Below the pieces are notes generated by a model. That model did no database searches. It was not told the DNA's origin and was given only the letters and a program-made list of their open reading frames with translations. This document shows positions 5,174 to 34,823 of a DNA stretch of 36,557 nt, piece by piece. This stretch comes from a virus. The position numbers and the translations under genes were made by a program. The stretch lies in IMG/VR virus record IMGVR_UViG_3300045988_075937. The stretch is one strand, 5' to 3'. Position 1 is the stretch's first letter; each line of letters begins with the position of its first letter.

Positions 5174-5216
5174 AAAATAAGCCGCCTTTCGGCGGCTGTG
5201 GTGTAGAGGTAATATC

Positions 5217-6420: not shown

Positions 6421-6432
6421 ACATGTAACGGA

Positions 6433-6489
6433 ACCCGCTAAGCCTCTGGGTGCATTGCATCTATGCGTATCATGGCGGGTCTTTTTTTA
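6433..6489 (+). terminator. Leader hairpin (ACCCGC...GCGGGT) followed by T7, between the promoter and the abi RBS (possible attenuator)
   Basis: A 6-bp GC-rich stem with a 36-nt loop that contains an inner GCAT/ATGC stem, then a T7 run. Confidence 0.4.
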
Positions 6490-6513
6490 TGTCAATTTTT
6501 GAGGATGTCCAAT

Positions 6514-7389
6514 ATGCCTGAAACAAAATCTTTTTGTACCTATGAACAGCAGCTCCAAATTCTAAAAAGGCGCGGCTTATCAATTGCCGATGATACTTTG
6601 GCCCTTCAGTGGCTTCGGGAAAAGAATTATTATCGCCTGAGTGCCTATTCCCTCACGCTGCGGCGCAAAAATCCTTCTACTGGAGAAGATGAATTTTTAA
6701 AGGACTCATCTTTTTCTACAATCATCGACCTTTATCAGTTTGATGAACAGTTTCGTGCTGCTATCTCTCACGCTGCAGCTATTGCAGAAACCAACCTCAA
6801 AGCCTATATTGCTTACTACCATGCCCGCCAATACGGTCCGGTCGGCTATCTGGATGGAAATCATTTTGAAGATCCCTGGCGGCACGCTAAACTTTTGAAT
6901 GGCCTTTCCAAATCTCTCGGCTTGCGAAAAGATGAACCATTTGTTTTACATCATCATAAGGATTTGAACGACGTATATCCTGTTTGGGTTATCGTTGAGG
7001 TTTTGACCTTTGATCAGGTTTCTATGATGTACCGTAACCTGCTGCCGGAAGACCGTGCTGCCATTGCTCGTGAGTTCTATGGTATTTCTTCTCGTGAATA
7101 CATTGAAAACTGGACTCATTGTGCTGTTGTTGCTCGCAACATCGCTGCACATGGTTCCCGCTTTTATCATCGACAGCGTGTTAATCCTCCCGCAAGAATG
7201 CCTAAATCCATCAATTCTTACGGCACAAAACCATTCGGATATGTATATGCTCTTTGGCATTTACTTCCCATTCCTGACCGCAGCGCATTTGTCAACGCCG
7301 TTCATGATTGCTTTATAGCACATCCCTCTGCTCAACTTTCTGAATTGGGTTTTCCTGATAATTGGCTTGATATTTTAACCGTCCATTGA
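6514..7389 (+). CDS. Abi_2 (AbiD/AbiF-like) abortive-infection protein (291 aa)
   Basis: Family pattern: YEQQLQILKRRGLSI.D...A...L...NYYRLSAY...F..IIDLYQFDEQFR. GAGGA lies 8 nt upstream of the ATG at 6514. Confidence 0.85.
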   Translation: MPETKSFCTYEQQLQILKRRGLSIADDTLALQWLREKNYYRLSAYSLTLRRKNPSTGEDEFLKDSSFSTIIDLYQFDEQFRAAISHAAAIAETNLKAYIAYYHARQYGPVGYLDGNHFEDPWRHAKLLNGLSKSLGLRKDEPFVLHHHKDLNDVYPVWVIVEVLTFDQVSMMYRNLLPEDRAAIAREFYGISSREYIENWTHCAVVARNIAAHGSRFYHRQRVNPPARMPKSINSYGTKPFGYVYALWHLLPIPDRSAFVNAVHDCFIAHPSAQLSELGFPDNWLDILTVH

Positions 7390-7394
7390 TTTTT

Positions 7395-7420
7395 GAGCGC
7401 CCACCCGGCGCTCCTTTTTT
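7395..7420 (+). terminator. Rho-independent terminator after abi (GAGCGCC-caccc-GGCGCTC + T6)
   Basis: 7-bp GC stem, 5-nt loop and a T-run. Confidence 0.8.
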
Positions 7421-7606
7421 ACAAACGCAAAGAACCCCTCAGCTGTTTCCAGCCAAGGGGTTCTCTGCTCTGCTGTCTGTCCAAAAGAAAAGTAGGAGGT
7501 TCTATCATGGAATGCCTTGCAAATCCCGTCGCGTCTCCGCTTTTCTATTGTAAATCCAATATGATCCTTCTGCAACCCAGAATTTTTTCAGAGGAGGTGT
7601 GTACTC

Positions 7607-8740
7607 ATGGCAAACAAAAAAGGTTCCGATGGCCGTTACCGCTACCGTGTCTGCATCGGCAAAGATGAAACCGGCAAGCCCAAATACAAAAGCTTTTACA
7701 GCACCACCGCAAAAGCAGCGCGTGCTGCTGCCGAAGCTTACCGCGCAGCACTGGGCAAAGGAATGGATCCCGCCCAATCCGAAGCCACCCTTGCCACTCT
7801 ATACGATAACCTGATCGCTGCCAAAACAGCCAAAGGCATCGGGCAAAAGAGTCTCGACCGCTATGAAGACAATAAAAACCATTGGGGTCCGCTTCTGGAT
7901 CAGCCTGCAGCAGATCTTCGCACTGCCGACTTCCAGCGGGTCCTTAACTCTCTGGCCCAGTGGCACAATGGCAAACCACCACTGTCCCACTTCACGCTGT
8001 CTAATCTGCGCAGCAGCGCCAAGGCTGCCTATGAACTCGCTATCCCAGAAGTGGTACAATACAATCCCATTGTTAAAACTACCTGCCCTGCCGGTGCTGA
8101 TCCTGAGCACCGTGAGCCTATCACAGAGGAACAGCAGCAGTGGATCCGCGAAACGCCTCACCGCGCCCAGCGTGCTGCCATGCTGCTGCTTTACTCAGGC
8201 CTCCGCCGCGGCGAAGCTACCGCCCTCACCTGGGCCGATGTCGATTTGAAAGAAGCCACGATCACCGTTCACAGCGGTTATAATTTCAAGGATAAAAAAA
8301 TCAAGGATCCCAAAACAGAAGCCGGTGTCCGGGTCGTTAATATTCCAAAGATCCTTGTGGACTATCTCAAAACTCAGCAGGACGATTGCTTGTATGTGCT
8401 GCATACTGTAAAGGGCCACCGCATGACAGAGCAGGCATGGAAAACTCTGTGGAGCAGCTACATGACCGATCTGAATGCAAAGTACGGCTATCGCGGCGAA
8501 GAAAGCAAAAAGCGCCCAGGCGGCCTGTCCATGCGCATTGAACCCTTTACACCTCACCAGCTGCGGCACACATTTTGTACCCTGATGTACTTTGCCGGGG
8601 TCGATGTTCTCACCGCCCGCGATCAAATGGGTCATAAGGATATCAGCGTCACCCTCGGCATCTACACATCCCTTGATAAAAAATTCAAGAAAAAGAAGAT
8701 CAATCGTCTGGACTCCTATCTCAAAAAACAGACCGGCTAA
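7607..8740 (+). CDS. int: Tyrosine site-specific integrase (377 aa)
   Basis: Catalytic pattern: RRGE, HQLRHT..., GHKDISVTLGIYT (R..HxxR..H..Y). GAGGAGG RBS. attP lies immediately downstream. Confidence 0.95.
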   Translation: MANKKGSDGRYRYRVCIGKDETGKPKYKSFYSTTAKAARAAAEAYRAALGKGMDPAQSEATLATLYDNLIAAKTAKGIGQKSLDRYEDNKNHWGPLLDQPAADLRTADFQRVLNSLAQWHNGKPPLSHFTLSNLRSSAKAAYELAIPEVVQYNPIVKTTCPAGADPEHREPITEEQQQWIRETPHRAQRAAMLLLYSGLRRGEATALTWADVDLKEATITVHSGYNFKDKKIKDPKTEAGVRVVNIPKILVDYLKTQQDDCLYVLHTVKGHRMTEQAWKTLWSSYMTDLNAKYGYRGEESKKRPGGLSMRIEPFTPHQLRHTFCTLMYFAGVDVLTARDQMGHKDISVTLGIYTSLDKKFKKKKINRLDSYLKKQTG

Positions 8741-8747
8741 TTTGCAA

Positions 8748-8767
8748 TGGCGCAAAAGTGGCGCACA
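8748..8767 (+). repeat. Arm-type repeat cluster, left of the attP core (2 x TGGCGCA(A/C)A)
   Basis: TGGCGCAAAAGTGGCGCACA read directly. The same motif recurs at 8991..9020. Confidence 0.5.
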
Positions 8768-8818
8768 TCGTTTGTATTTTTATCGTATTTATGTGTTTTA
8801 TTCTCAATTCCTCGCCCG

Positions 8819-18500: not shown

Positions 18501-21500
18501 GGTACCACCGGAGGGCTTTATTTTTGTTTCTTTGATGTTAACAATATCATAAAAAATCTCCCGTGTATCCGGTTTGATGGCTGTCAGCACATCTGCCTCA
18601 TACGCGTTTTCGCCCACGCGGATTTTAATTCTTCCGCGGTTGAAGGCTTCCGCATTTTTGTGATTTGCGGGCTCGCGGTACACCTCATCCGCAGTTGCAA
18701 TGATTTCATCAAGATTGGCAGCCATGCGCATCTTGTCCGCATACGCTGTGGCATTTTCCCACTGTAATGCCTTTGAATACTTCGACCAGACAAACTCATT
18801 GCGTCCATCTTTGCTGTTCAGAATTGTCCAGCCGTTTCTTACAAAGCCATCCGGGAAACGTTCTCTGATTGCCTGCTTGACTACCGATTTCCAGTTTTCC
18901 TGCGGGATTCCTTTCAGAATATCCTCGTCGATCTGAATGTAAGTTTCTCCCTCGGCATCTTTCTTGATTTCAAACCTTGTCCCTTCCGCCGCGCCCTTGT
19001 TCTCAAGGGCTGCGGCGTTTTCTTTTGCGGCGCGCAGGCTGTCCATAGCCCTCTCCGCGTGGGCAAAGTATTCGTCCTGCAGCACCCGCTTTTCTGCCGC
19101 CGCAAGGCGCTGTGCTTTCAGGGCGGCTTTGTTCTCCGGGTCTCTTGCCAGCACTTCCTTTGCGCGGCTCACGATGTCGCTCAAAAGCTCCTTCACCTTG
19201 GTCATCACCTTGTGGATGCCGCCTGCCTTGCCTGCGTTCTTTTCAGCCTGCCCGCGCTGGAACTCCACCCAGCGCTTAAAGCTTGCTTCATCGCTGAAGA
19301 TTCCGCGCCATGCGTCCGCCACAAGTTCTTCTGCAGCTTCCTCGTAGCTCAGCCCCTGCTGTGCATAGTCGGAAAGCTTCCCCCGGATCATCTCGTCAAT
19401 GCCTTCAAATCCCTCGCTCTTTGCCAGAAATTCCAGTGCATGCTGCTGCAGTGCCTGCGCACCCTCTGCATCCAGTGAGTTGTACCAGTGGTAGTCCTCG
19501 TGCAGGATTGTGCCAAACACATCCTCTGCCCGGTCGTTGAAGAAAATGCGCGCCGTCTCGGTGTCCACATAAGCCCTCACCCGGTCGCTGCCTTGCAGCA
19601 CCGTTTTCAGCACCGCATCCGTGTTCGTGGCCTTCGCATTCAGTTCGATCAGCTGCGTGCCCACCTCGTTTGCCGTGCGCATCGTTCCCTTATACAACAC
19701 CCGGCCGCTGCCGCTGGTGCTTTCCGCCGTCAGCCTTCCGCCAAGGCTTGCGCGCTGCATGTTTCCGGCTTCCAGTTCCCCGTGTCCCTGCAGCCATGCC
19801 AGCTGCAGCGCTTCCCGTCCGCCGTCCTGTGCCAGCACGTAATCGGTGTTCACAGCAAGGCCGCTCATGCCCTGCGCCAGCTCCATAGCCTTGTCAAAGG
19901 TGGTCACATCTTCCATCTGTCCCAGCCGGTACAGGCTGCTGGCCGCAGCCGCATACCGCCCGGCATCTCCAATTTCTGTCGGCATGTTCCTGCTGATGGT
20001 CGCACTTGCCCCATCTGATACCTGCCATCGGGTCAGCTCCTGCTGCACCTCCCGCTGCTTTGCGGTCAGGCTCTGCTGTTCAAGGCCGTAGGTTTCCCGC
20101 ATCCCGCCAGACTGTTCCGCCGGGCTGCTTTCCACCCTTTCCCCGGTGTTCTCCACGGCAGCTCCGCTCTGGCCCAGCTCACTTTCCGTCTGTGCCTGCC
20201 GCGCAGATCTGTCAGCTTCCATTTTTTCTACAATTGCGGCCGTTTTTTGTGCTTCAACCGTCGCATTTTCGGTAGCTGCGGCCGGAGCCTGTGCTGCCCG
20301 CTGCTGTGTTGTCATTTCCCGCAATACCTGCCGGGTCTTTGCTGCCGTTTCCGGCAGCTCAATACCGTATTCTTCCGCAAAGGCAGCGCGGTTCGCTTCA
20401 TTGGCCGCATTCGGTGTAAATAGGTTGATGGTCTTGCTCGTAAGCTGCCCATCCTGCACAGCTGCGGCAAGCTGCTGCACAGCCGGGTTTTCGCTCTGTA
20501 CCATCGGCGCAGTATCCTGCATGGTCGCAAATCCGCTTGCCGCCCCCATCACTTCCGGCTGCACCGTTTCCTGCGTAGCAGCCGTAGGTTGTCGGGTGTC
20601 TGCTGCAGCTTCTTCCGGTGTCTGCTGCATCGCCATTCCCGGCTCCTGTGCCCGCACTTCGTCCTGCAATGCCTGCCGTACCTGTTCCACCTGTCCTTCG
20701 TAGTATGCCCGCTTCACGTTGCCCACAAGGCTGGCATCGCCGCCATTCATCTTCGCAAGCCCTGTGCCCACAGCACCGCCCAGGGCACCGGATGCACCGC
20801 CCGTCAGGCCGCTTTCCAGTGCGGTCAGAAAGGTGTCGCTTTTAAACAGGTCTGCCGCCGCTTCGCTGTCGCCCAGTGCTACATCAATGGCCTTGTCCGC
20901 ATAGGTCTCCACAAAGGCCTGCATGGCATTGTCCACGCCGCCGGAGATGGCATTTGCCACCGCCGGGTACTGCTGCGCAATCGCCCCGTCCGCCGCCACG
21001 CTGCGCACCATGTCCGCCAGTTTGCCCGCCAGTGTATCCTTTGCGTAGTCTGCGCCCATGGTCTTTGCAAGGTCAGCCGCACCTACGCTGTTAATGGCCC
21101 AGCCCGCGCCAAATTTTGCAAGGCCCCCGGCCAGCGTCTTGCCTGCACTTTCGCCCTTTTCAATGCTCTGGCCCATAGCCTCCGCACCGCCCTGCGCACT
21201 CAACACCGGCAGCACCCATGCCGGGTCAATGGCCGCCACCGCAAGGTTCTCGCCCGCACTGCTCGCAATGCCCAGTGCCTGCTTTGCAATGGGGCTAAGG
21301 CCCGCCTGTGCAGCTGCGGTCAGATCCTGTCCGCGCTTGTACAGCTGATAGCCAAAGCTCTTCTCCGGGTCTACGCTGTCATGCACTTCCGTTCCGGCAA
21401 TGCGCGCCCGCATGTTGTTGATCTCCTGCTGCGTGTAACCTTTTTCAATCAGCTCTGCATCCGTGTAGGCATCGCTCTGCGTTGTTTGTGCCGCCGGAGC

Positions 21501-22616
21501 ACTGGCCATTGCACCGCTGCTCTGTGCCAGCTGCAGCGTGTTGTCCCGCGCTGCATACCGCGTCTTTCCGCCGGTCATCAGGCGCAGCAGCTCCTGCTTC
21601 CGGTCGTCGCTCTGTACATCCTGCTGCAGCTGCTTCCAGTTCCCGCTGGTCGCCGCTGCATTCTTTACGCTCTGTACGCCGGTCTCTCCCGCCAGAAAAA
21701 CCGAGGATGCTACCGTGTCCCCAATGCCGCCAATGGTATTGGCCGCACGCCGCTCTGCACGCCGTCCTGCAGGCAGCGCATCAAAGTCGGCAATGTACTG
21801 CCGTGCTTCGCTGATCTCCTTGCGGCTGTATCCCTTTGCCAGCAATTCCGCGTCGGTGTAGTCCCGTCTGCCCACACTCTTTTCCGGTACTGCTGCTCTG
21901 GCTGCAGCACCGCTCACGCTCTGGGGCTGCATGGCGTTGTTTTTCTCGGCATAGCTCTGCCCGCCGGTGCCAATGCGCATCAGCGTCACAAGTTCCCGGT
22001 GCTTCGGGTCAGCGTCCATCCACTGGTTCAGTCGGTCAAAGTCTCTAAGATCGTCCGTCGCCTTCAGGTCTTCCGTGTACTGCTTCACCTTCTGCGCTGT
22101 CTGTGCATACCAGCCTTCGTCTCCGCTGGCAATGCCTGCAATGCGCTGGCGCCCAGTGGGCTGCACCGTTCCCGTTACCTTTGCCGCCGGGGCTGCAGCG
22201 CTCTTCGCGTTCAGCCATTCCGGCTGCGCAGTGCTGCTGCGTGTACCTGTACCGCTGTCGGTCACAATGCTGCTTTTGCCCGGATATGCCTGTGTGCTGC
22301 CCGTTTCCTGCGGCACTGTCAGCTGCAGCTTGTGGCTGCTGTCCATGCCCTTCATCTGCGCCAGCACCCGTGCACCAAGACCCGTGCCGGTGTTCTGCCT
22401 TGCAGCCGCAGCCGGGCTGGCAGCATTCTGTCCACTGTTTTTCGCTTTCCAGCTTTCCCGCGCTTTTGCAATGCGTTCCGGTGTCCACTTTTCCGTAGTG
22501 TTTGCTGTTCCCGCAGCTGTACCGGCGCTCGCCGTCCGGTTTGTGGTGCGGCTGTTGTTTTTCGCTTCCCAACTTTCTCTGTCTTTTTTCAGTCTTTCCG
22601 GTGTCCATTCGCTCAT
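12534..22616 (-). CDS. Giant (3360 aa) multidomain virion protein: putative internal/ejection protein fused to polyvalent effector-like modules (HExxH zincin motif, nuclease-like module, long coiled coils)
   Basis: A single uninterrupted ORF with AAGGAG 10 nt upstream of the ATG. It lies between the internal-protein genes and the tail fibre. HEDYH is at 19488..19502. See findings. Confidence 0.85.
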   Translation of the reverse strand: MSEWTPERLKKDRESWEAKNNSRTTNRTASAGTAAGTANTTEKWTPERIAKARESWKAKNSGQNAASPAAAARQNTGTGLGARVLAQMKGMDSSHKLQLTVPQETGSTQAYPGKSSIVTDSGTGTRSSTAQPEWLNAKSAAAPAAKVTGTVQPTGRQRIAGIASGDEGWYAQTAQKVKQYTEDLKATDDLRDFDRLNQWMDADPKHRELVTLMRIGTGGQSYAEKNNAMQPQSVSGAAARAAVPEKSVGRRDYTDAELLAKGYSRKEISEARQYIADFDALPAGRRAERRAANTIGGIGDTVASSVFLAGETGVQSVKNAAATSGNWKQLQQDVQSDDRKQELLRLMTGGKTRYAARDNTLQLAQSSGAMASAPAAQTTQSDAYTDAELIEKGYTQQEINNMRARIAGTEVHDSVDPEKSFGYQLYKRGQDLTAAAQAGLSPIAKQALGIASSAGENLAVAAIDPAWVLPVLSAQGGAEAMGQSIEKGESAGKTLAGGLAKFGAGWAINSVGAADLAKTMGADYAKDTLAGKLADMVRSVAADGAIAQQYPAVANAISGGVDNAMQAFVETYADKAIDVALGDSEAAADLFKSDTFLTALESGLTGGASGALGGAVGTGLAKMNGGDASLVGNVKRAYYEGQVEQVRQALQDEVRAQEPGMAMQQTPEEAAADTRQPTAATQETVQPEVMGAASGFATMQDTAPMVQSENPAVQQLAAAVQDGQLTSKTINLFTPNAANEANRAAFAEEYGIELPETAAKTRQVLREMTTQQRAAQAPAAATENATVEAQKTAAIVEKMEADRSARQAQTESELGQSGAAVENTGERVESSPAEQSGGMRETYGLEQQSLTAKQREVQQELTRWQVSDGASATISRNMPTEIGDAGRYAAAASSLYRLGQMEDVTTFDKAMELAQGMSGLAVNTDYVLAQDGGREALQLAWLQGHGELEAGNMQRASLGGRLTAESTSGSGRVLYKGTMRTANEVGTQLIELNAKATNTDAVLKTVLQGSDRVRAYVDTETARIFFNDRAEDVFGTILHEDYHWYNSLDAEGAQALQQHALEFLAKSEGFEGIDEMIRGKLSDYAQQGLSYEEAAEELVADAWRGIFSDEASFKRWVEFQRGQAEKNAGKAGGIHKVMTKVKELLSDIVSRAKEVLARDPENKAALKAQRLAAAEKRVLQDEYFAHAERAMDSLRAAKENAAALENKGAAEGTRFEIKKDAEGETYIQIDEDILKGIPQENWKSVVKQAIRERFPDGFVRNGWTILNSKDGRNEFVWSKYSKALQWENATAYADKMRMAANLDEIIATADEVYREPANHKNAEAFNRGRIKIRVGENAYEADVLTAIKPDTREIFYDIVNIKETKIKPSGGTHVESEDSRSRLPESFTETFGKAHMESEDSGSSGSKISNQSIAQEAAENKGNDGTLKKNVRYQLSEADELTKLRDEQQRLDEQRRELKEERSAWLGSDAVKEIEAKKKALGIFSAEAKAYRDSEEYQNYLAKRKDYNARMAQLEDQSAVLNGRIKEAGARMQQQNAKKGKAEQAVYDAKAEAHGGKAEYRRVLAKERFGTTEDFRRAGYILPDGQMLDFAQNDRTRDTDHREIMSVFGSAEVKNGTETLNEFLLDGNVRVMAEAPGVDLSADTAPTTQQLEQIWRMVQELGGEKRQFTLDISTADGRVAAGKEYSGRVDADRVVREIREYYQTGELAQESDLAKFRYQLAEQASRDAKRNDQQMASRTIADKAAALDTLSQFFGLTRGVKVSRTAIEGLASRWAKANGSKVDRAKLARETEVLVDYLKADGANMEKANALAETLAGEILDGAVYRNSELWDEYPELHKLEYTVNRSGQAKAELVKAYGSWSAAVAEARKHGVSLRQVDGVRDGNPAQQYESVINDNRAVGGTSDGAKALWKAAAQQAGVDGAMSMESTEWLNVLMNLHDAIKPATMSRFADDAEYEDAKIELAGRIIGDIMATPEMTDAQAIFEGIQRHNMDVARAAAGSKERAAEVTKELRGVQKAQQREFGRRMQENRRTADRNAEVQQMTELQRQNARAEKMLDQNLETFGVDVSNVGNLNEKLTVLRESYEREMKQEVKRLKAERQEMLDEAKLEMQKLRSEKNELAWQLRQEQRRADKAEYSLIVQENEIMEWEADNERKRAAWEQKQAQRNALAIETARQQRDEDIAVAKTVAEKRVQRARDARKMDELKRSIRQNAAQLNQMLLRPSKDKYVQPGLIDAAAQVAKLADMTILNERAVNQLTRLQDRIRQSAGSESSPNAMTEEWKQTGVDTLIQTLRDDLQATKDAKLTKLHEQLAEAEALPDSEKAWALQERLRKRIRETENRTYLPMTVDQMRMLKAITSSTLHVIRNANKTVSLAKAEEVSAIAEGAASEVNASKGNHPGGKLDGMHNLLTKYQLDMLGAERVFRMLGGYAKNGQMEKMANMLNDGQYRQTKITVEGEKLFANVTGKEHVKEMQNFAGPGADLVDVGLTDVKGKKAELTHAQLCSLYMHLHNTDSLNHLMNGGLVIPDAKLYNKGDIEQAYQKGQTVHLGMLTDADGTPTADSILQTVEAAMTDYDRAWCADMKEFFDNYTTKLINETSLQLVGYQRATVKNYYPIAVDKSVLATQIDGLNLDATIEGRGFLKNRVKSGQPILLEECANVVQRSLRDTAAYAGLAAPIRDVQKILNSGVETREGLENLKNGIIKEQWGKDAVSYIDDLLTDLQTTQRKRPSTFNKVLGNLRGNYAGAVLTLNPGVAIAQAASLPTAAAVLGGDTMAAVVPFVKNLSPKARTALETEIKEHGDVLLDWRKRGSQNGELASIGNRETLAEKGMDKLPNWLTGWINGMDEVTVAALWEGSKRYVQNHTAEFEGAEVTGSPAYWEAVNRTYQKVIEQTQPNYTVMQRAGIQRNPNELLKQLTMFTTQRFQNYGILADAIGDYKAQAERYRQNQSDENKAELQRATQQRNRAIVSQTVQTAVFAIMKIGADFLLHRWDREQDENGDVTVKSMWKRFASLYTESFAGNFLYGSELYSLIDNAVNGKDYDVLSAASISVVNDLAGDVQKFFAEFRKDTSEMDEEQLQKHHNKLMQRSMTLLEDSFEVAGVPYGNGRKIVEAVKGYYGDLENLAHGGQFSFNSVPQSATGQYDRLYNAYAGGDSDEAKAAVEKLNAMVEAGTIAENKMYSQLKSRLVKYDVRVRQAAEEQNAGNDQKRYELENEMIEQLSEVLGLPKGKRGDVVDCVTGAVNQLAEKQLKGDNASVTDDLVEAVDSWDAGAVQEEYDRLAKAGKSATTLKSKITETAKPEYLAGSDADRQQMEKMLLALKDADGEELYTEKNFAQWVEEAEKKAEEGPKPDPYAAVR

Positions 22617-24841: not shown

Positions 24842-26743
24842 TCATTTTCTCGGCTGTGCCGCGCTCACTCGCTCACCGGTCGCCGCCGCCAGCGTAAAGG
24901 CCACACTACGCAGCACCATCTGCCCTGTGCCGTAGATCTTCAGCTGCAGCGTATCTGCCCGCCGGGGCACAAAGGGCAGGTTGATGCGCTGGTGATCCTT
25001 CCCTGCCGCGCAGGTGCCCAAAGTTTCAAAAGCTCCGCCGTCATAGCTTGCAGCCACCGTCACCACCGTGTGGGCCAGTGCATCCAGCCGCACCGTCACC
25101 CGGCTGATGTACTTGTCGTCCGGTACGCTCAGGCCAATGTCGCCGCTCACCGCTTCAAACTGCAGCGCCGTTTCCTGCCCTGCTTCCTCCGTGTCGCTTT
25201 CCCGGTCAGGATCTGCGGCCCACAGTACGCTGCCGTCCCACAGGTACAGCTGCTGCCCGGTGGATACCATCTCGGTGCCTGCAGCGCTTTCCTCGTGCCA
25301 CAGGCCTTTTTCCGTGTCGTATACCAAAAGCCGTCCGGCCTGCGGGCCGCCTGCTTTCTGGTGCAGGTACAGGTAATACCGCATGTCCATGCTTCCCGCC
25401 ATGGCCCAGTCCACCGCAGTCAGCCCGCTGGTGTCCAGCGCAGCGGATACCTTTGTCGGCAGGCTTCCGCCCCATGCCATCACCCCGTCCGGCGAAAGAT
25501 AATACAGCGTCTCTGCGATCACGCACAGGCTGTTCGCTGCGTTTGCCGCCACGCCCCGGCAGCGCACGCTGCTCATCTGGTAATCGCTGGGCTTTGTGCC
25601 GTACAGTTTGTGGATGCAGTTTTCCTTGAAGAATAGCAGGTATCCCAGACAGCTTGCAGCGCCGGTAAATGCGCCGTCACTGCCCACGCTCACGGCATAG
25701 CTGTCCGCTGCAATGCCCTGATAGCTGTACCAGTTGGTCGGGTCGCCCAGAGCGCAGGCGTAAATGGTGTTCTCCTTCCGGCTGCACCCCCACACCCGGT
25801 TTCCCTGTTCCGTCACAAAGTCCAGTTCCGGCACCCGCCGCTCCACCTTCACCGGTGCGGCCGCTGCATCGTTCTCGGTCACGGTACCGTCGGCGCTCTT
25901 CCATGTCACACCGGTCTCCGTCACGGTCCAGCTGCCGTAATACCGGTCGCTGTCCTCGGCCCGTGTCAGCACTGCCACCATCTCATCGCCGTCCATGGTC
26001 TGGATCATCACCTCACCGTTCAGTCCTTTTGCCACTGCGTTGCACACTGCGTCCGGCATCCCGCTTATGGTCACAGTGTCCCCCTCCCGGATCACTCCGC
26101 CGATCCCCGGACACCGGATCTTCACCGCGCTCAGCAGCACTTCCACCCACTTTTTGTTTTTTGCACTGTAGCGTAGCAGCACCGCATTGCTGTCATAGGC
26201 TTCGTCGCTGTCACTTTTCAAAAACAGCTGTCCGTCCTCCGGCTCTTTCGGTTCGGTCTTGCCTGCGCCTGCCGGGGTGTATGTCCGGCCTTCGGCATCG
26301 CAGGGGGTCACGGTCACGCTTTTCCCGCCCATCTCCCACTGTGCGCCAAGGCGCGTCAGTTCGCCGGTGCCCGTGTCAAAAGCCACCTTGTCAGGCCAGA
26401 TCAGCACTTTTGTGCCCATGCCCGCCATGGCCTTGCGGTCATCGGTCAGCACGTTCTCCAGCACCACCGCACCGGTACGTACTTCTTCGTCCGGGGTGTA
26501 TTCCAGCGTCTTTCCGCGGCAGATCAGCAGCCCATTCAGGTGGTACATTCCGTTCACACCCTGTACCGTCCGCACATTCCTGCGCATTTTCCGCGTCTGC
26601 AGCGCCGGGTATCCCCGGCTGGAAAAATTCATTTCCCCGCTGAACTCTGCCTCGCTGCAGCCATATCCTTCATTCAGCCCACCAAAGGCCCGCAGCATCT
26701 GGCGGCTCGTCTGCAGCACGTTCAGGTTCGTTCCGTCCATCAT
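24842..26743 (-). CDS. Large tail protein (633 aa), possibly tail-tubular/nozzle-like
   Basis: Position after the connector gene in a T7-like gene order. The product assignment rests on synteny only. Confidence 0.4.
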   Translation of the reverse strand: MMDGTNLNVLQTSRQMLRAFGGLNEGYGCSEAEFSGEMNFSSRGYPALQTRKMRRNVRTVQGVNGMYHLNGLLICRGKTLEYTPDEEVRTGAVVLENVLTDDRKAMAGMGTKVLIWPDKVAFDTGTGELTRLGAQWEMGGKSVTVTPCDAEGRTYTPAGAGKTEPKEPEDGQLFLKSDSDEAYDSNAVLLRYSAKNKKWVEVLLSAVKIRCPGIGGVIREGDTVTISGMPDAVCNAVAKGLNGEVMIQTMDGDEMVAVLTRAEDSDRYYGSWTVTETGVTWKSADGTVTENDAAAAPVKVERRVPELDFVTEQGNRVWGCSRKENTIYACALGDPTNWYSYQGIAADSYAVSVGSDGAFTGAASCLGYLLFFKENCIHKLYGTKPSDYQMSSVRCRGVAANAANSLCVIAETLYYLSPDGVMAWGGSLPTKVSAALDTSGLTAVDWAMAGSMDMRYYLYLHQKAGGPQAGRLLVYDTEKGLWHEESAAGTEMVSTGQQLYLWDGSVLWAADPDRESDTEEAGQETALQFEAVSGDIGLSVPDDKYISRVTVRLDALAHTVVTVAASYDGGAFETLGTCAAGKDHQRINLPFVPRRADTLQLKIYGTGQMVLRSVAFTLAAATGERVSAAQPRK

Positions 26744-27602: not shown

Positions 27603-28625
27603 TTAGTTTGCCAGCGCCTTTGCGCTGTAGCGTGCCGAGCAGCTCTCAATGCGCACCATGTACTGTTCGCTCAGCCGTTCCGCCGTCTTGGTGGCCTTCC
27701 AGCCCACAGAAGCACGCTGGTTCAGCGGGTCATCGCCGTAGCCCAGTTGCTTCACAATGTGCTGCATGCCGCCGCCTTCCAGTTCGGTGGTCGCGTAGGC
27801 GTGGGCACCCAGTACCAGCGTGCTGTACACAGCCAGCCCCGCCGGGCAGCCATCGCCCTTCCACACCTTTGCCTCGCTGGAAACCACGAACCGCACGTTG
27901 TTGATCTTGCCGATCTCGCCGTTGAAGATCTCCTCCGGTGCCGCATACTTGTGCGCCTCGATCCAGTTCGGGTCCTTGCGGATATCGTAGCTGGTGTGCG
28001 GGTGCACAATGGCCACAAAGCTGTCGCCAATGGGGTCTGCGTTCTGGGTCTGCAGCAGCGCCACTGCCTGGTCGATCAGATCCACCGTCAGCTGTGCAGT
28101 GGCATCCAGATCCGCACGGCTGGTCACGGCGGTCTCCGCGCCGCCCGTTCCGATCTTCGGTGCATAGATCACGTTGGTGCCGCCGTTCAGGATATCGCGC
28201 ACAATGGTGTCCATGGTACGGCCGCCCTGGCTTGCCAGCACATTGGTGGCCTGCACGATGTTGTTGTCAATGGCCGTCAGATCCAGCATGTCGGTCAGGG
28301 GCACCCAGCCGCCGTACTGGTGCACCTCGGCGGTCACGGTGGTCACGTTCAGCGCCTGACCTGCCGGGGTCACGCCCTCGGTCAGCGGCGTGGTGGCCTT
28401 GGGCAGCGCATCATACTTGCGGAACTCAATGGTCTTGCCGTTGTTCGCCGGAATCGGGTAACTGTCGCCGAACTGGTCATGCACCAGTGCAGGCTCTGCC
28501 AGATCCAGCAGGGTCTTTTCGTAGTAGGTCTTCATCTCAGCCGTCATACCGGCTGCGCCTGTGGTGTTCTGCAGCTGTGCGCTTGCGTCCGCAAACATCT
28601 GCAGATCCAGTCTCTTCTTGCTCAT
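27603..28625 (-). CDS. Major capsid protein, N4-gp56-like (HK97 fold) with an N-terminal Prp-type propeptide (MSKKRLDLQMFA|DAS)
   Basis: AGGAGG lies 8 nt upstream of the ATG at 28625. The pattern TIEFRKYDALPKATTPLTEGVTP is typical of the family. Confidence 0.85.
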   Translation of the reverse strand: MSKKRLDLQMFADASAQLQNTTGAAGMTAEMKTYYEKTLLDLAEPALVHDQFGDSYPIPANNGKTIEFRKYDALPKATTPLTEGVTPAGQALNVTTVTAEVHQYGGWVPLTDMLDLTAIDNNIVQATNVLASQGGRTMDTIVRDILNGGTNVIYAPKIGTGGAETAVTSRADLDATAQLTVDLIDQAVALLQTQNADPIGDSFVAIVHPHTSYDIRKDPNWIEAHKYAAPEEIFNGEIGKINNVRFVVSSEAKVWKGDGCPAGLAVYSTLVLGAHAYATTELEGGGMQHIVKQLGYGDDPLNQRASVGWKATKTAERLSEQYMVRIESCSARYSAKALAN

Positions 28626-28683
28626 TTGTTTATCCTCCTTCAAAAGGGTTTATCTTTCTCGCATTCTTCGCGCGGGAAATCTC

Positions 28684-30048
28684 TCACAGCACAATGCGTT
28701 CTCCGCGCTGTGCCCTGCGTGCCAGCTCTTTCCGCTGCTGCCGCGTCATGTGGGCCACATCCACCTTCATCTCGGCCGCGCCGCCTGGATGTGTCCCGTT
28801 CTCAGCCGGGCGCTGGCTGCGCTGCTGGATGCGCGTTGCCACGCCCTGCTCCACCTGTTTTGCCGTGCGGGCCGTCTGGTTTTCCATCAGGCGGTCAAAG
28901 TAGGCTGCACGGTACGCCGCTTCCAGCCCCACGCCCCGCCGGATCATATCCGCCACGGCAGGGTTGTTCAGCACTTCGTCCAGCTCAAAGTCCGGGTAGC
29001 TGTTTTTCAGCTTTGCCGCTTCCGCTTCCCACCGGGCACGCACTGCCGCTGCACGCTGCTGGTGCTCCGCGGCCAGCCGCAGCTGTTCGGCCTGCTGCTT
29101 TTCAGCATTGGCGCGCTGCAGCTGGCCCTCCATGCGGTCCATCTCCCGCGCGGTTTTCACGCTGATGCCCCGCTGCGCCGCCAGCGTTTCATAATATTCA
29201 TCGTTCTTCACCCGGCCGTTTTTCACGGCATCGATCAGCCCGTCCATGTCGCTCATGTCAATGCCGTAGGCTTCGGCCAGCACCTTGCCCAGCTCGTTCA
29301 GCTGCGGGTTTTCCCGGATGCTCTGCACCGCCATCCGCGCAGCATGCTGCATGGCCTCTTCAAACTCTTCCGGGTACTGCTGCATCGCCTTTGCAAAGGC
29401 ATTCCGGCGCTGTTCCGGTGTCAGCTGCACGTTTTCTTCGGTTTCGCCGCCCTGCTCCTGCTCGTTGCCCTTGTCCGGTTCAGCTTCCTCCTGCGTCAGC
29501 CGTTCGGCATCGACTTTGGCTCCCTCATTGAGGGAGCTGCCGCCTGCAGGCGGCTGAAGGTTTTTTTCTGTCGTCGCTTTTGCTGCTTTGCCCGGCCTGC
29601 TGCGTTTCGCAAGCCGCTCCTGTGCGGGCCGCAGGGCAGGCGGTGCCACCGGGCTGCTTTCGCCCTCTGAAGCTTGCGCACCGTCACCGGAACTGCCAGC
29701 TGCTGCACCGTCACCAAATAACTGCAGATCCATGTTGTCTGCATCGTTTGCATGCAGGTTCATGAGCTGCACATTCTCAGGGTACTGCTGGGCCAGCAGG
29801 TACAGCCCATCTATCACCAGCTCAAACTTCGCCAGAGTGTCAAGGCTCCGGTTCGCCTGTACACGCAGGATGTTGTCCCCGCCCGGGTCGCAGGTCACAG
29901 TGCCGCTATCCACGCTGTAAGCCAGGCTCTGCATCAGTGTGCTCACCGCCGCGCACACAATGTCCTGTCCTTTCGGCGCATAGCCCGCGTGTCCCGATGC
30001 CTGCAGGCTCATGTCCTTCCCTTTTTCGTCGTAAATAATGGTGATCAT
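28684..30048 (-). CDS. Fusion ORF (454 aa): Prp-family cysteine protease (aa 1-100) plus scaffolding protein (aa 106-454)
   Basis: MIT...SGHAGYAPKGQDIVCAAVS...YPENVQL matches Prp (His20/Cys32). An MDLQLFG|DG motif follows, then an acidic coiled-coil C-terminal region. There is no stop and no RBS between the two parts. Confidence 0.85.
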   Translation of the reverse strand: MITIIYDEKGKDMSLQASGHAGYAPKGQDIVCAAVSTLMQSLAYSVDSGTVTCDPGGDNILRVQANRSLDTLAKFELVIDGLYLLAQQYPENVQLMNLHANDADNMDLQLFGDGAAAGSSGDGAQASEGESSPVAPPALRPAQERLAKRSRPGKAAKATTEKNLQPPAGGSSLNEGAKVDAERLTQEEAEPDKGNEQEQGGETEENVQLTPEQRRNAFAKAMQQYPEEFEEAMQHAARMAVQSIRENPQLNELGKVLAEAYGIDMSDMDGLIDAVKNGRVKNDEYYETLAAQRGISVKTAREMDRMEGQLQRANAEKQQAEQLRLAAEHQQRAAAVRARWEAEAAKLKNSYPDFELDEVLNNPAVADMIRRGVGLEAAYRAAYFDRLMENQTARTAKQVEQGVATRIQQRSQRPAENGTHPGGAAEMKVDVAHMTRQQRKELARRAQRGERIVL

Positions 30049-30066
30049 TTTATTCTCCTTCCCCGG

Positions 30067-30330
30067 TCACTTGTTCAGATCGATCTGCTCGATCGCCGCC
30101 CGGATCTCCATCGTTTCCAGATACATTCCCATGCGTTTCTGCTGCTCCCGCAGCAGTTCAAGCGGGCAATCATGCCTCGGCTCTTCCCTTCCGGTCCTTT
30201 CCGCCGCCTCGATCCGGTTGCAAAACCCTTTCAGTCTTTCGTACCGTTCCTTCGTCTGCCGGTACTCCGCTTTAAAGCGTTCCCGGTAGTCGTTACTGAT
30301 CATGCCATCGATGGTGTCTTTCAGCTCCAT
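30067..30330 (-). CDS. Small helical protein (87 aa) between portal and scaffold
   Basis: AGGAGG RBS. It vaguely resembles small 'crAss001_48-related' helical proteins (low confidence). Confidence 0.55.
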   Translation of the reverse strand: MELKDTIDGMISNDYRERFKAEYRQTKERYERLKGFCNRIEAAERTGREEPRHDCPLELLREQQKRMGMYLETMEIRAAIEQIDLNK

Positions 30331-30342
30331 GCCGTTCCTCCT

Positions 30343-32424
30343 TCACTTGTTCGGGTTGTTCACGTCCATGGCCCGCTTTGCGGCCTGGGTCGCCATGCTG
30401 TTGCTCCCGCTTTCGCCCACCACATCTCCCAGACTGTTGGTGGTGCTCTTCGCGTCCGCGGTCCCGCCGCCCCCTGTTCCGGCAGCACCGGCAGCCTGTC
30501 CGGCCGCGCTGGCTGCTGCGCTCACGTTGGTGCCGTTCTGCTGGTCAATGATGGCGGCCATCTTCTGCATCTGCTGTGCCATCTGCTGCAGCTGCTGGTA
30601 CAGCGTGCCGTTCTGGCTCACCCTCTCCCGCACCTTCTCAATGCCTTCAAAGTCCATCATTTCCAGCGCAGCAAGGGCAGCATCGGCGTTGGCCGGTGTA
30701 AAGAATCCCAGCTGGTAGCACTCCTTTGCCGTCTCGTTCTGAGAAAGGCGGCTGAAAGTGCTTTTCTTTGCCGCGCTTACCGTAATGTCGAACACCGGCT
30801 CATGGTCGCCCAGCTGCACACCGCCCACATTGCCGCCGGGCACGGCCTGCAGCATCGCATTGCTGAACGGTACATACTCCACGCCGCCGCTCTCGCCAGT
30901 AATGCGGTATACCCGCTCTTCGTCGTAGAACTGCCGCATCAGCTCGATCACAAGGTAGCATTCTTTTGCAAACGTCCGGTACGCGCTTTTCAGCATATCG
31001 CGGCTAAGTTTGCTGCCCGCCTCCTGCAAAGCCGCAATGGCGCTTGCCGCTGTCAGGCCGCTGGTGGTTCCGCCCTGGCTCACATCCCGGTTGCCGCTGA
31101 TTTCCTTCAGCTCGCTCACCCGTGCATCCCGGTAGCTGATGCAGTTGCCGCTCAGTACATTGGTCTGCAAAGGCCGGAAACTGTCGTCCGTCAGCCTGCC
31201 CACCACGTGCACGATGTCCTTGCCAAAGTCGGCCAGCTCTTCTTCGTTCACACCCGCTGTGTCGCTCAGCACATAACGGGCCTTTGCAGCCAGTTTCACG
31301 TTTTCGTCCATGGCGTGGTTCATCTCGTCAATGGCGGTCTGGGTGTCCTTCATCACATCAATGTATCCAAAGCCCGCCGGGCTGTCCTCTTCCCGGAACA
31401 GCGGGTCAAACACAAAGGGGTATTTTCCGTGGTCGTAAAATCCACGCTGGGCATACTGCGGGTCATTCTCGCTGGCATACAGCACCACGCCGTTGCAGTA
31501 TTTGCAGTAATGCAGCACCGTCTGTCCGCCCTCAAGGGCCTTTTTGTAATACCAGTCCACCACAACGCTTTTGTCGCTGGTGTCAATGCTGTCGTCGTGG
31601 ATGTACTTTGCCACATCCATGCTGCTGCCCGTGTGCCCGGCCATCTGCGGGTATCGCCCTTCCAGCTGGTCATTGTCCATAAGGCTCAAGCTGAACAGGT
31701 GCGGCGTGTCCTGAATATCTTCCACGCCCGGCTCCCAGTACAGCATCAGCAGGTTCACGCTCCGGATGCAGATCTCGCCAAGCCCGCCGCGCGCCTCCGG
31801 GTCCCAGAACACGCCCTTCACGCCGGTGCCGGTCTTCAGCTTGCGCCACCATGTGTCGCTGTACACGGTCTCGTAGTCGCACTGCTCCAGCACCGTGGGC
31901 AGGATCTTGGAAAGCGCTTTTGCTGTTTTCTCGTCGTCCTCTGCCCGCGGCAGCACGTTCGGTTCCGGGTAGTTGTCCATGGCATCGGCGTGCTTGTTGG
32001 CAATGCTGTTGAACAGCCATCCGCTGGAAGGCTTGGGCTTGCCCTGCATTTCCTTGTTTTCGTAATTTTTCCAGTGTCCCATGCGGAACCACAGCTCGTT
32101 TTCGATGATGCGTTTGTCCAGTGCGGCCTTGCCCGCCTTGTACTTCTGCAGCAGGTCGTTTGCCTTCCGCACCTCGTCCTCACCGATCGCTTCCTCTTCG
32201 TCAAAGGCTCCCTCCCCGAGGGAGCTGTCTGCGCCAGCAGACTGAGGGAGTCCGGTTCCCGGCATCGCTCCCTCCGGCCGTTCCGGAAGCAGCTGCATGC
32301 CCATCGGCATCTGCGCAGGCTGTCCGCCCTGCATCATCCAGTCCGGTATCTGCTGGCCGCTCTCTTCCTGTGGTGGGTATCGCTCCGACAGCTGTCGCAG
32401 CAGCTCTTTCTCGTCCATCGTCAT
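30343..32424 (-). CDS. Portal protein (693 aa)
   Basis: Size and position directly after TerL. Gly/Ala-rich C-terminal tail. Confidence 0.75.
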   Translation of the reverse strand: MTMDEKELLRQLSERYPPQEESGQQIPDWMMQGGQPAQMPMGMQLLPERPEGAMPGTGLPQSAGADSSLGEGAFDEEEAIGEDEVRKANDLLQKYKAGKAALDKRIIENELWFRMGHWKNYENKEMQGKPKPSSGWLFNSIANKHADAMDNYPEPNVLPRAEDDEKTAKALSKILPTVLEQCDYETVYSDTWWRKLKTGTGVKGVFWDPEARGGLGEICIRSVNLLMLYWEPGVEDIQDTPHLFSLSLMDNDQLEGRYPQMAGHTGSSMDVAKYIHDDSIDTSDKSVVVDWYYKKALEGGQTVLHYCKYCNGVVLYASENDPQYAQRGFYDHGKYPFVFDPLFREEDSPAGFGYIDVMKDTQTAIDEMNHAMDENVKLAAKARYVLSDTAGVNEEELADFGKDIVHVVGRLTDDSFRPLQTNVLSGNCISYRDARVSELKEISGNRDVSQGGTTSGLTAASAIAALQEAGSKLSRDMLKSAYRTFAKECYLVIELMRQFYDEERVYRITGESGGVEYVPFSNAMLQAVPGGNVGGVQLGDHEPVFDITVSAAKKSTFSRLSQNETAKECYQLGFFTPANADAALAALEMMDFEGIEKVRERVSQNGTLYQQLQQMAQQMQKMAAIIDQQNGTNVSAAASAAGQAAGAAGTGGGGTADAKSTTNSLGDVVGESGSNSMATQAAKRAMDVNNPNK

Positions 32425-32428: not shown

Positions 32429-33889
32429 TCAAATCCTCATCACCCGCGTCCGGCTCTTGCGTCTGTCCATATCCAGCGGGTCATCTTTCATCGGCTGCAC
32501 CGGTTCGGTCTTTCTGGGGCTGATGGGGTTTTCCATCAGCACATACCGGCACTCGTCGTAAATGTGGTCTTCCTGGGTGGTGTCAATGTCTTCCACCCGG
32601 CTCTCGTCGTACACAAGGTTCGGAATGGTGCGGATAAAATGCCTGCAGGTATCAAATACCTGAAACATCGGCCTGCCCTCGCCGTCAAATGCCAGCCGGT
32701 AGTGCAGCTGCATCTTGCCTGCAAGTCGCGTGTGGTCGCCCGGTGTCCAGAAGATGTAATTCGGGTGCTTTTCCTGCATGGCCGCAATGCTCTCGCCCTG
32801 ACTCTCGTTGAAGATAGCCGGGTCTGCCACGCCGGTAATTTGCCGCCCGCGCAGCATTGGGTCGTTTTCCTCCGCTTCCTTGATGCGCCGCGCCTGCTCT
32901 ACCGGGTCTATCTTCAAGCCTTCGTTGGGCACGCCGGTGCAGCCGTACAGCTCCTTGATGCGGTAAAGCCGTCCTTCCTCGTCCGCTGCGTACCAGCCAA
33001 CGGAGAAAGGCTTTGCATAGCCAAAATCGTACCCGCGCCAGATGCGCCAGTGTGCTGGAATGCGGAACGGCTTGATCACATGCGTCCACCGCTGATCCTC
33101 GTAGTGGGCCGGGTCGTTGCGCCATTCGGTAAATACCTGCCCGTTAAAACTGTCCCAGTCGCCGTAGAGCAGTGCCTGCTTTTCCGCTTCCGGTAAGCTT
33201 GCCAGCGTGCCCAGATATCCCGGGTCGTTTTCCAGCAGCTTTTTGTTGTCAAACACCGTGGACGGGATAAACACCCTTGTCCGCCGCAGCTTTTCTACAC
33301 TGCCGTCCGGTTTTTTCACATCCACCAGCTGCACCATCCTCGTGCCCGGTGGTGCCGGTGTAATGAACCGTGCCTTCACCCATCCGTGGCCAATGCCGCC
33401 GGGGTTTGCCGTGGCCCGCATGTACACTGCCGTGCCCGGCCCGGTAGGTCGGTTGCGGCTCATCAGGTAGCTGTATTCCTCCCAGGTAAAGTGGGTCAGC
33501 TCGTCCACGCCGATAAAATCAAAGGCTTTGCCCTGATAGTTGTATTTGTCCTGCGTGCGGAACATGCTGCCAAAATAGATCTTCGCCCCGCTCGGAAAGG
33601 TCCATACGTGGCTGGAGGCGTTGTACCGCGCTTTCGGGAATACCGGCTTGTAGTACTGCATCGTCTTGTCGATCAGCTCCGAAAGCTGCGGGTAGGTTTT
33701 CCGCACGATCAGCCCGCGGTAGTGCGGAATGTCCACCTGCCGCAGCGCTTCGATCACCAGTGCATCGCTCTTTCCTCCGCCTGCTGCCCCGCCGTACAGC
33801 GCTTCGTCCTCGCTGCGGCGCATAAAGGCTGCCTGCTTGGGCTGCGGCCGCCAGATGACCAGCCGGTTTTTATACAGTTCCGCTGCCAT
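32429..33889 (-). CDS. terL: Terminase large subunit (486 aa)
   Basis: Walker A GGAAGGGKS, Walker B FDFIGVDELTHF and a C-terminal nuclease region. Confidence 0.95.
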   Translation of the reverse strand: MAAELYKNRLVIWRPQPKQAAFMRRSEDEALYGGAAGGGKSDALVIEALRQVDIPHYRGLIVRKTYPQLSELIDKTMQYYKPVFPKARYNASSHVWTFPSGAKIYFGSMFRTQDKYNYQGKAFDFIGVDELTHFTWEEYSYLMSRNRPTGPGTAVYMRATANPGGIGHGWVKARFITPAPPGTRMVQLVDVKKPDGSVEKLRRTRVFIPSTVFDNKKLLENDPGYLGTLASLPEAEKQALLYGDWDSFNGQVFTEWRNDPAHYEDQRWTHVIKPFRIPAHWRIWRGYDFGYAKPFSVGWYAADEEGRLYRIKELYGCTGVPNEGLKIDPVEQARRIKEAEENDPMLRGRQITGVADPAIFNESQGESIAAMQEKHPNYIFWTPGDHTRLAGKMQLHYRLAFDGEGRPMFQVFDTCRHFIRTIPNLVYDESRVEDIDTTQEDHIYDECRYVLMENPISPRKTEPVQPMKDDPLDMDRRKSRTRVMRI

Positions 33890-34653: not shown

Positions 34654-34823
34654 GCGGTCGTCGCAGCGAGTACGGGTTGTGGCTCCCAGCGTCTGCTTCG
34701 GCCCTTGGGGCGGGCCTTGCATCCTGCTGGCCACGGCCCCAACAACTCCTCCCTGTTTCCGCCACTGGCGGCGGTCGTCGTTGTTGCATCACAAAACCAC
34801 CGGATGCATCCGCACCCAGTGTT

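Follow-up and report, generated by a model that had tools for sequence, protein, structure and literature searches.

Two described systems are precedents for the locus analysed here. In staphylococcal phage 80alpha, the Prp protease of the host cuts both capsid and scaffold protein at a motif of the type found in ribosomal protein L27 (Wall et al. 2015; Kizziah et al. 2017, PMC5744158). In phage P2, the protease forms the N-terminal part of gpO and the scaffold its C-terminal part, and gpO cuts both the capsid protein and itself (PMC7552001). We analysed a 36,557-nucleotide (nt) stretch of viral DNA (IMG/VR record IMGVR_UViG_3300045988_075937), referred to at its full length as the window, in which a 454-amino-acid (aa) open reading frame (ORF) joins a Prp-type cysteine protease domain, via an L27-like motif, to a helical scaffold-like domain. 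Lambda gpC/Nu3 and herpesvirus UL26/UL26.5 are also protease-scaffold fusions that cleave themselves and the capsid protein, and the proteases of such fusions belong to the serine class, either assemblin/HK97-like or ClpP/S49. The name of Prp, 'phage-related ribosomal protease', refers to the borrowing of the host enzyme by the staphylococcal phage. The discoverers of Prp still call this phage connection a puzzle (PMC12324487).

The locus resembles 80alpha in that the scaffold and the capsid protein each have a short N-terminal peptide ending in xLxLQxF'A (the apostrophe marks the bond cut, or predicted to be cut) and in that the protease is of the Prp family. However, the enzyme of 80alpha is the essential ribosomal Prp of the host, the phage itself having no protease, whereas here a diverged Prp is encoded by the phage and joined to the scaffold. 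The 'propeptide' of the scaffold is here the protease itself, the scaffold is not of the gp46/DUF4355 type, and the capsid protein is of the N4-gp56 type. With P2 gpO, the locus shares its layout, in which one chain starts with a (here predicted) maturation protease and ends with a (here predicted) scaffold domain, and this chain is made from one ORF with one Shine-Dalgarno sequence. Nevertheless, gpO is a serine protease with active-site Ser107 (PMC7552001), unrelated to the cysteine-protease fold of Prp, and it does not cut at L27-like sites; the two proteins are alike in organisation but not by descent. No homology to the serine proteases of gpO, HK97 or the herpesviruses was found for the 454-aa protein, Prp being the sole protease family matched. 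Unlike in lambda and the herpesviruses, an internal start for excess scaffold is not evident here. Cellular Prp (YsxB; PDB 7KLD, 4PEO, 2G0I, 2IDL, 1S12) has in common with the window domain its fold, the catalytic His and Cys, the supporting Gly, Asp and Ser residues and the logic of the recognition motif, but it stands alone, has about 105 aa and acts on L27, and its gene lies between rplU and rpmA, whereas the window domain is part of a phage head module. Finally, the stand-alone Prps of other phages (PHROG 4478, SOCP, Krappator27 gp4) show the same domain encoded after the portal gene, with the motif on scaffold and capsid protein, but in separate genes of 90-140 aa, and their cleavage must therefore occur in trans. 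Our literature search returned no experimental study of these stand-alone proteins and no printed recognition of them as Prp.

We give a probability of about 0.75 to the reading that the 454-aa ORF encodes a self-releasing polyprotein whose phage-encoded Prp trims the N-termini of both scaffold and capsid protein. The ORF is a single unbroken frame from the ATG at 30048, comprising the Prp domain, the cleavage motif, a disordered linker and the helical scaffold-like domain (Table 1). The initial annotation had proposed that the phage brings its own Prp as a polyprotein, and the layout bears this out, the Prp domain being fused in frame to a protein at the scaffold position with the motif between them.

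Residues 1-94 match the Pfam family PF04327 (Peptidase_Prp) end to end (57.6 bits against a gathering cut-off of 27, E 1.5e-15), and the domain also matches PHROG 4478 'peptidase'. In an AlphaFold2 (AF2) model based on 26 homologues, residues 1-97 form a confident beta-alpha domain (predicted local distance difference test, pLDDT, 80-90), in which low confidence is limited to residues 23-27 of the catalytic loop. The corresponding loop is disordered in unliganded crystals of SaPrp, the Prp of S. aureus (PMC9261936). Foldseek matches the domain to the Prp structures 2G0J/2G0I, 2IDL, 7JVS, 7KLD and 1S12 (probability 1.0, target template-modelling score 0.66-0.84); this fold search was needed, as searching the PDB by sequence with all 454 residues produced no more than a weak match (2G0I, E 0.003). 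The string SGHAGYAPKGQDIVCAAVS sets the positions of His20 and Cys32, and together with the profile and the fold it confirms residues 1-100 as a Prp with a His20/Cys32 dyad, as had been proposed from the letters. In an alignment of 26 fusions with 36-100% identity, the invariant columns are those of the catalytic loop (G19, H20, A21, G27, D29, C32 and S36), L108 and Q109 of the motif, and a set of C-terminal scaffold residues. The seven loop residues align with G21, H22, A23, G29, D31, C34 and S38 of SaPrp, which is inactivated by G21A, H22A, D31A, C34S and S38A and in which A23 and G29 belong to a mobile loop (PMC9261936). The domain carries a complete active site and is predicted to be catalytic.

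As to orthology with ribosomal Prp, all NCBIfam Prp equivalog models (PRK14553) score far below their cut-offs, the best being NF011128 with 41.3 versus 136 bits, and the gene is not located between rplU (L21) and rpmA (L27) but in a prophage, where the portal gene and an 87-aa ORF precede it and the capsid gene follows. The divergence from the equivalogs (41 vs 136 bits) could mean that the domain is not a maturation protease at all, but a chaperone or assembly domain that binds the motif while the host Prp does the cutting, or a protein directed at the L27 or the ribosome of the host. Cellular Prp has indeed been proposed as a chaperone of L27 (PMC9405229), and the N-terminal peptide of the 80alpha scaffold is needed for assembly whereas its cleavage is not (PMC5744158). 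Nevertheless, catalytic residues that stay invariant across such deep divergence are unexpected in a domain used for binding only, cut sites co-occur with phage Prp in both fused and unfused form, and the gene lies within the head block, between portal and capsid; we consider either of these roles improbable.

The L27 consensus reads MLxx(D/N)LQ(F/L)F'A(S/H)KK, with the cut after Phe and a small residue at P1' (PMC9405229). The scaffold and the capsid protein both carry a motif of this type, as the initial annotation had noted, MDLQLFG at the junction and LDLQMFA at 28590..28610. The former, MDLQLF'GDG, covers residues 106-114 and lies about 10 residues past the Prp domain. The latter belongs to a capsid N-terminus that reads MSKKRLDLQMF'ADAS, the start being the ATG at 28625, which gives MSKKRLDLQMFADAS and is preceded by a Shine-Dalgarno sequence AAGGAGG at 28634..28640; the capsid family model TIGR04387 begins only at residue 25. 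In the six-frame translation of the whole window, the pattern [DN]LQ[LMF]F[AGS] has exactly two matches, at the scaffold junction and at capsid residues 7-12, where 0.016 are expected and two or more occurred in 0 of 300 residue shuffles. The other virion ORFs (portal, 633-aa internal virion protein and 3360-aa polyvalent protein) contain no convincing further Prp site. We place the predicted bonds at F111'G112 and F11'A12 because the motifs align in this way with the published L27 consensus, which moves the cuts proposed in the initial annotation one residue earlier, to after the Phe, while leaving the motifs themselves as they were. The predicted products are a 12.1-kDa protease (residues 1-111), a 37.7-kDa chain starting with GDGAAAG and an 11-residue capsid propeptide.

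Table 1 Features of the Prp-scaffold locus and of related elements in the window.
Feature	Position	Strand	Remarks
Terminase large subunit	32429..33889	-	
P22-type portal	30343..32424	-	PF16510, E 3.6e-35
87-aa crAss001_48-like ORF	30067..30330	-	
Shine-Dalgarno AAGGAG of 454-aa ORF	30055..30060	-	6 nt upstream of ATG at 30048
454-aa Prp-scaffold ORF	28684..30048	-	ATG start, stop at 28684..28686; homologues cover 100%
Prp cysteine-protease domain, aa 1-100	29749..30048	-	Pfam, PHROG, fold
Catalytic loop G19-H20-A21...G27..D29..C32...S36	29941..29994	-	His20 29989..29991; Cys32 29953..29955
Junction motif M106-D-L-Q-L-F-G112 (MDLQLFG)	29713..29733	-	predicted bond between F111 (29716..29718) and G112 (29713..29715)
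Disordered acidic linker, aa 112-206 (~95 residues)	29431..29715	-	pI 4.6
Double GC-rich hairpin in linker coding sequence	29519..29556	-	encodes LQPPAGGSSLNEGA; single copy in window
All-helical scaffold-like domain, aa 207-454	28687..29430	-	AF2; PHROG 13908; conserved C-terminal RP-ENG...PGGA...GERI motif
Capsid N-terminal propeptide MSKKRLDLQMF'A	28590..28625	-	predicted cut between F11 (28593..28595) and A12 (28590..28592)
Major capsid protein, 340 aa (N4-gp56 family)	27603..28625	-	TIGR04387 E 1.6e-95; PHROG 1357; second predicted Prp substrate
Dispersed-repeat copy, intergenic	~34672-34744 (to ~34790)		91.8% identity over 73 nt to L003 copy

Both sites are conserved. At the junction, F111 is at least 90% conserved among the 26 fusions, and the motif is found in 120 of the 120 homologues listed, mostly as DLQLF'ADG, the G at P1' being the minority state. 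At least 446 IMG/VR viral contigs encode a Prp relative, and all our IMG/VR locus figures refer to the best 80 of the 446. This survey ran via the Prp domain, the alignment of the diverse stand-alone scaffolds being too variable for a locus scan, and the 80 loci are consequently biased toward close, fused relatives. The junction site is present in 79 of them, and the downstream capsid ORF opens with the motif in 70 of 72; the capsid motif is also kept in L001-L005. The (D/N)LQxF sites followed by a small residue are thus conserved candidate sites of proteolysis.

The fused ORF itself is widespread. It is complete (423-539 aa) in 71 of the 80 loci, eight others reaching the contig end and one being truncated. 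The clusters found by a word-indexed search number more than 100; they are 56-98% identical to the protein, cover it fully, measure 400-543 aa and without exception contain PF04327. The identical 454-aa protein has been assembled on 650 public contigs, the longest of 828 kb; its NCBI entry is MEI3313368.1, 'ribosomal-processing cysteine protease Prp [Faecalibacterium prausnitzii]'. The genome contigs of relatives belong to Faecalibacterium metagenome-assembled genomes (MAGs), one of them being 205 kb long. In addition, about 17 of the best 150 representatives (at 50% identity) of the scaffold family are fusions with an N-terminal Prp signature, at 37-67% identity to the query. The fusion is not unique to this phage, but represents a common, undescribed family of gut-phage proteins.

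These numbers bear on whether a sequencing or assembly error erased a stop, or shifted the frame, between what would be separate prp and scaffold genes. Unfused relatives do exist, among them L008 with an 8-nt overlap between Prp stop and scaffold start, and short, frameshifted versions make up a minority of the database entries (P0124, P0127, P0129). But the same 454-aa sequence recurs on the 650 contigs, the frame is intact in the more than 100 clusters and in the 71 IMG/VR loci, down to 36% identity, the junction has no Shine-Dalgarno sequence, and the short forms run into a wrong frame and are errors themselves. An artefact is hence extremely improbable. The statement that the ORF continues from Prp into MDLQLFG without stop or ribosome-binding site is upheld, since the frame is single and no Shine-Dalgarno sequence precedes Met106, and the missed stop or frameshift that the initial annotation had wanted checked is discounted, the fusion, its catalytic residues and the junction motif being kept in many diverse, independent assemblies.

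Two sets of database proteins were discarded along the way. Prp-only proteins of 115-181 aa, which looked like close unfused relatives, turned out to be contig ends or frameshifts into an alternative frame. Members of 649-650 aa in the 90% cluster of the window protein are portal proteins (P0365-P0376) and not longer fusions. The 576-aa P0001 has a portal N-terminus joined directly to the Prp-scaffold ORF, by deletion or misassembly, and this chimera draws portal proteins into the 90% cluster, whose size of 2159 therefore overstates the family.

According to our reading, the fusion would be made as one chain from its single ribosome-binding site, and its Prp domains would dimerise like cellular Prp. 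A cut after Phe111, made most likely between molecules or by one partner of the dimer on the other, would then yield a 12-kDa protease and a 38-kDa scaffold (GDGAAAG), and the same protease would strip MSKKRLDLQMF (11 residues) from the capsid protein. The fusion would fix protease and scaffold at a 1:1 ratio, so that few turnovers would be needed per protease molecule, and it could also deliver the enzyme to procapsids under assembly. We favour a cut in trans or across the dimer over one in cis, because the unfused relatives must act in trans and because the number of residues that separate the site from the conserved YP of the last strand varies from about 9 to about 37 among the fusions. 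Cellular Prp is a homodimer, with the P4 and P6 leucines of the substrate at the dimer interface (PMC9405229).

The 1:1 ratio raises the question of a nested gene, in which an internal start at Met106 (ATG at 29733) would make free scaffold in excess, the fusion then being a minor species that delivers the protease. The codon two residues before L-Q is ATG, GTG or TTG in the window, L001-L005 and L007, and a GGAGG- or AGGAG-like stretch lies just upstream in L004, L005 and L007. In the window, however, the 30 nt before Met106 (ATGAACCTGCATGCAAACGATGCAGACAAC, directly followed by the ATG) contain neither a stop nor a purine-rich Shine-Dalgarno sequence. Position 106 corresponds to the hydrophobic P6 of the recognition motif, which explains the frequent M, V and L and, with them, the frequent ATG, GTG and TTG codons; among the 26 fusions it is M, V, L, I, Q or G, with Q or G in P0230, P0234 and P0254. 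As Met106 is not conserved, a conserved internal start is unlikely and would not be a feature of the family, and P2 gpO functions at 1:1 with no internal start (PMC7552001). Taken together, we judge such a nested gene unlikely.

Several points weigh against a self-releasing polyprotein. A 1:1 ratio of protease to scaffold is unusual, an excess of scaffold being the usual rule, as in lambda and the herpesviruses, which make it from an internal start. The monomer AF2 model leaves the motif undocked from the active site, with pLDDT below 50 for residues 101-137, and thus lends no support to cleavage in cis, which is in line with the preference for trans or dimer cleavage. Cleavage in this phage and its relatives is itself a prediction from sequence. 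The C-terminal part has no Pfam match at E <= 0.01 and matches no named scaffold family, DUF4355/80alpha gp46 included; hhalign against the DUF4355 scaffold of Oenococcus phage Krappator27 gave a probability of 45% over 49 columns, whereas the Krappator27 scaffold itself matches DUF4355 at 5.6e-18. Cleavage of the 80alpha capsid and scaffold proteins is dispensable for viability, so that processing may be non-essential here too. Finally, the Firmicute host presumably has its own Prp able to cut the same sites. Firmicutes with a long L27 are reported always to carry prp (PMC12324487), and what the phage gains from a copy of its own may therefore be a matter of dosage, timing or specificity and not the replacement of an absent enzyme; independence from the host Prp through the phage copy is plausible.

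The C-terminal half is probably a scaffold, in view of its gene position, its shape and the shared N-terminal motif. Its gene lies between the portal and capsid genes, and the protein is elongated and mostly helical, the AF2 model being helical over residues 211-447 with a 54-residue helix at residues 297-350. The initial annotation had spoken of an acidic coiled-coil scaffold; 'acidic' applies to the linker, whereas the helical part is approximately neutral to basic (pI 8.1). PHROG 13908 ('unknown function', 294 positions) aligns with residues 106-453 starting at profile position 4, and the versions of the protein in the reference phages therefore begin at the motif. HMMER, run exhaustively with residues 106-454, retrieved 2194 representative clusters at 50% identity (E <= 1e-3), 1126 of them at E <= 1e-10. 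Most of the best 150 representatives are stand-alone proteins of 280-340 aa, in which 4-12 residues are followed by xLQLF'AEGG or a variant such as LNLRLF'DG.

Within the linker, for which pLDDT is below 50 at residues 101-137 and 150-206, a short basic segment, PALRPAQERLAKRSRPG (residues 135-151, 29596-29646), includes the sole predicted helix (residues 141-150). This segment (LRPAQERLA.RS) is kept in most fusions, down to about 40% identity and with variants such as MTPAQKRLAIRSG and MSPAQKRQAARS, while the surrounding linker is variable. A role in binding is conceivable, with the portal or the capsid protein as examples of a partner.

Both fused and separate prp-scaffold genes occur among related phages, as a comparison suggested at the outset has now established. 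L008, a Faecalibacterium-associated phage, encodes a P22-type portal, a separate 138-aa Prp with the identical loop GHAGYAPKGQDIVCAAVS, a 262-aa scaffold homologue with ...CDLQLF'GEGG, whose start is the one that overlaps the Prp stop, and a capsid protein with ...FDLQRF'ATVT. Krappator27 has a 97-aa Prp after the portal gene, a scaffold with ...LLNLQRF'AESG and a capsid protein starting with MKQFINLQRF'ADIS; its gp4 was named 'putative maturation head protease' by the authors with no further comment (PMC12403621). BFVD lists stand-alone 'Cysteine protease' or 'YsxB-like' proteins for Streptococcus phage SOCP and for metagenome genomes of podo-, sipho- and myoviruses, and the protease and scaffold homologue of Podoviridae sp. 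ctS6V7 are separate entries. Prp, a motif-bearing scaffold and a motif-bearing capsid protein thus form a module that is widespread in phages, and since its genes are separate in related phages, the fusion is derived.

The Prp-type processing of phage head proteins, protease-scaffold fusions and database entries for phage Prp homologues are already known. Our literature search found no paper on a phage-encoded Prp or a Prp-scaffold fusion, although Wall et al. 2015 and 2017 might mention phage homologues; a Shewanella phage paper, the Izhevsk paper and the polyvalent-protein paper, which the search also returned, had no bearing on the subject. According to this search, what is new is phage Prp as a class of head-maturation protease, its fusion to the scaffold via its own site, and the size of the motif-bearing scaffold family. 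Judged by its sequence, the fusion seems to represent a kind of phage head-maturation protease not described before. A Prp of their own is common among gut phages (the at least 446 IMG/VR contigs), most members of the very large scaffold family, with its 2194 clusters at 50% identity, open with an L27-like or related propeptide, and in one abundant Faecalibacterium phage lineage the protease is welded to its predicted substrate. If the predicted activity is real, Prp would constitute a further, structurally unrelated class of phage head-maturation protease, of the cysteine type. The fusion would also offer a compact, self-contained system for studying Prp specificity, with enzyme and substrate in one chain and with E. 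coli, a species without Prp, as an expression host. In addition, it would bear on the question of whether phage head maturation and the L27/Prp system have a common origin.

The 138-aa Prp of L008 (P0209) is likewise named 'ribosomal-processing cysteine protease Prp [Faecalibacterium ...]' by NCBI. We regard the ribosomal name as an over-annotation, because the window protein scores far below the equivalog cut-offs and both genes lie in phage head modules. Such names are misleading when metabolism or ribosome biology is inferred from MAGs.

Tandem junction sites, consisting of two or three DLQxF'A motifs with spacers of about 21, 29, 48 residues or more, were observed in 16 of the 80 IMG/VR loci; examples among the relatives are P0080, P0086, P0092, P0083, P0028, P0079 and P0118, as well as L002:6313-6400, L003:6316-6570 and L005:6334-6505. 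The junction of P0092, for instance, reads DLQLF'AKDELLQPPAGGSSLMEGAGGERLELQMF'AATATTAACGGNREELLGPRPAGCKARSRAEADAGSRNPLGGLDLQWF'ADGAAS. Every inserted spacer segment is followed by its own cleavage motif. The tandem sites suggest a polyprotein that would release small peptides.

The 29-residue spacer of relatives contains the same double-hairpin element that is located further downstream in the linker of the window. This element is made of two adjacent perfect hairpins, GCCGCC-TGCA-GGCGGC and GCTCCCTC-AAT-GAGGGAGC, with an RNA fold of -28.4 kcal/mol (z = -3.8). The LQPPAGGSSLNEGA peptide or DNA is found at another place in L003, P0092 and P0028, right after the first cleavage site, and in L003 the element is interrupted by a further hairpin-rich insert. 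It is probably an inserted palindromic mini-element, tolerated in frame in the disordered linker. A dispersed repeat, about 100-120 nt long, encodes the 48-residue spacer; it lies in frame in the Prp-scaffold linker of some relatives and occurs in several copies per genome, in both orientations and also in intergenic DNA, in related phages (e.g. L065, L075, L049, L036). The copy in the window lies between the stop of the upstream - strand ORF and the probable ATG (34580) of a gene encoding a protein similar to helix-turn-helix (HTH) proteins and the terminase small subunit (TerS), and it shows no unusual folding (z = -0.8).

A further but improbable idea is that the Prp-scaffold junction serves as an insertion place for small mobile, hairpin-rich DNA repeats, the translated products of which would be cut out by the polyprotein's own protease. 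This would amount to an excision of selfish DNA at the protein level, loosely comparable to inteins, provided that selection or the insertion mechanism supplies a fresh motif. Prp would then also be a polyprotein-processing enzyme that frees peptides.

A heptamer A_AAA_AAC (GAA AAA AAC in the zero frame) lies at 29561-29567 on the - strand, 5 nt upstream of the double hairpin. Ribosomal frameshift signals of the -1 type are classically built in this way, from a heptamer and a downstream hairpin. Here the shifted frame ends after 13 codons, which would give a product of about 176 aa comprising Prp and a shortened linker. We treat this signal as a chance occurrence, given that it would merely truncate the protein and is confined to the closest relatives, being part of the inserted element.

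The window is from a gut phage of Faecalibacterium, and its gene content, including an integrase, an internal-virion-protein homologue, the 3360-aa polyvalent protein and an Abi_2 gene, marks the phage as temperate and podovirus-like. Its portal is of the P22 type and its capsid protein of the N4-gp56 type. Its head block occupies 27.6-33.9 kb of the - strand, in the order terminase large subunit (TerL), portal, 87-aa ORF, 454-aa ORF and major capsid protein. The internal-virion-protein homologue (633 aa, PHROG 511) is encoded at 24842..26743, and the 3360-aa ORF (12534-22616, - strand) lies downstream of it. The sole Pfam match of the latter is an LPD3 'large polyvalent protein-associated' domain at residues 1241-1346; the product is presumably a virion protein of giant size, either ejected or polyvalent. 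On the + strand, a low-GC island at about 4000-8800 (46% GC vs about 59% in the rest of the window) contains the Abi_2 abortive-infection gene (6463..7389) adjoining the tyrosine integrase gene (7607..8740), and has the look of a moron, or of cargo for defence, carried at the end of the prophage.

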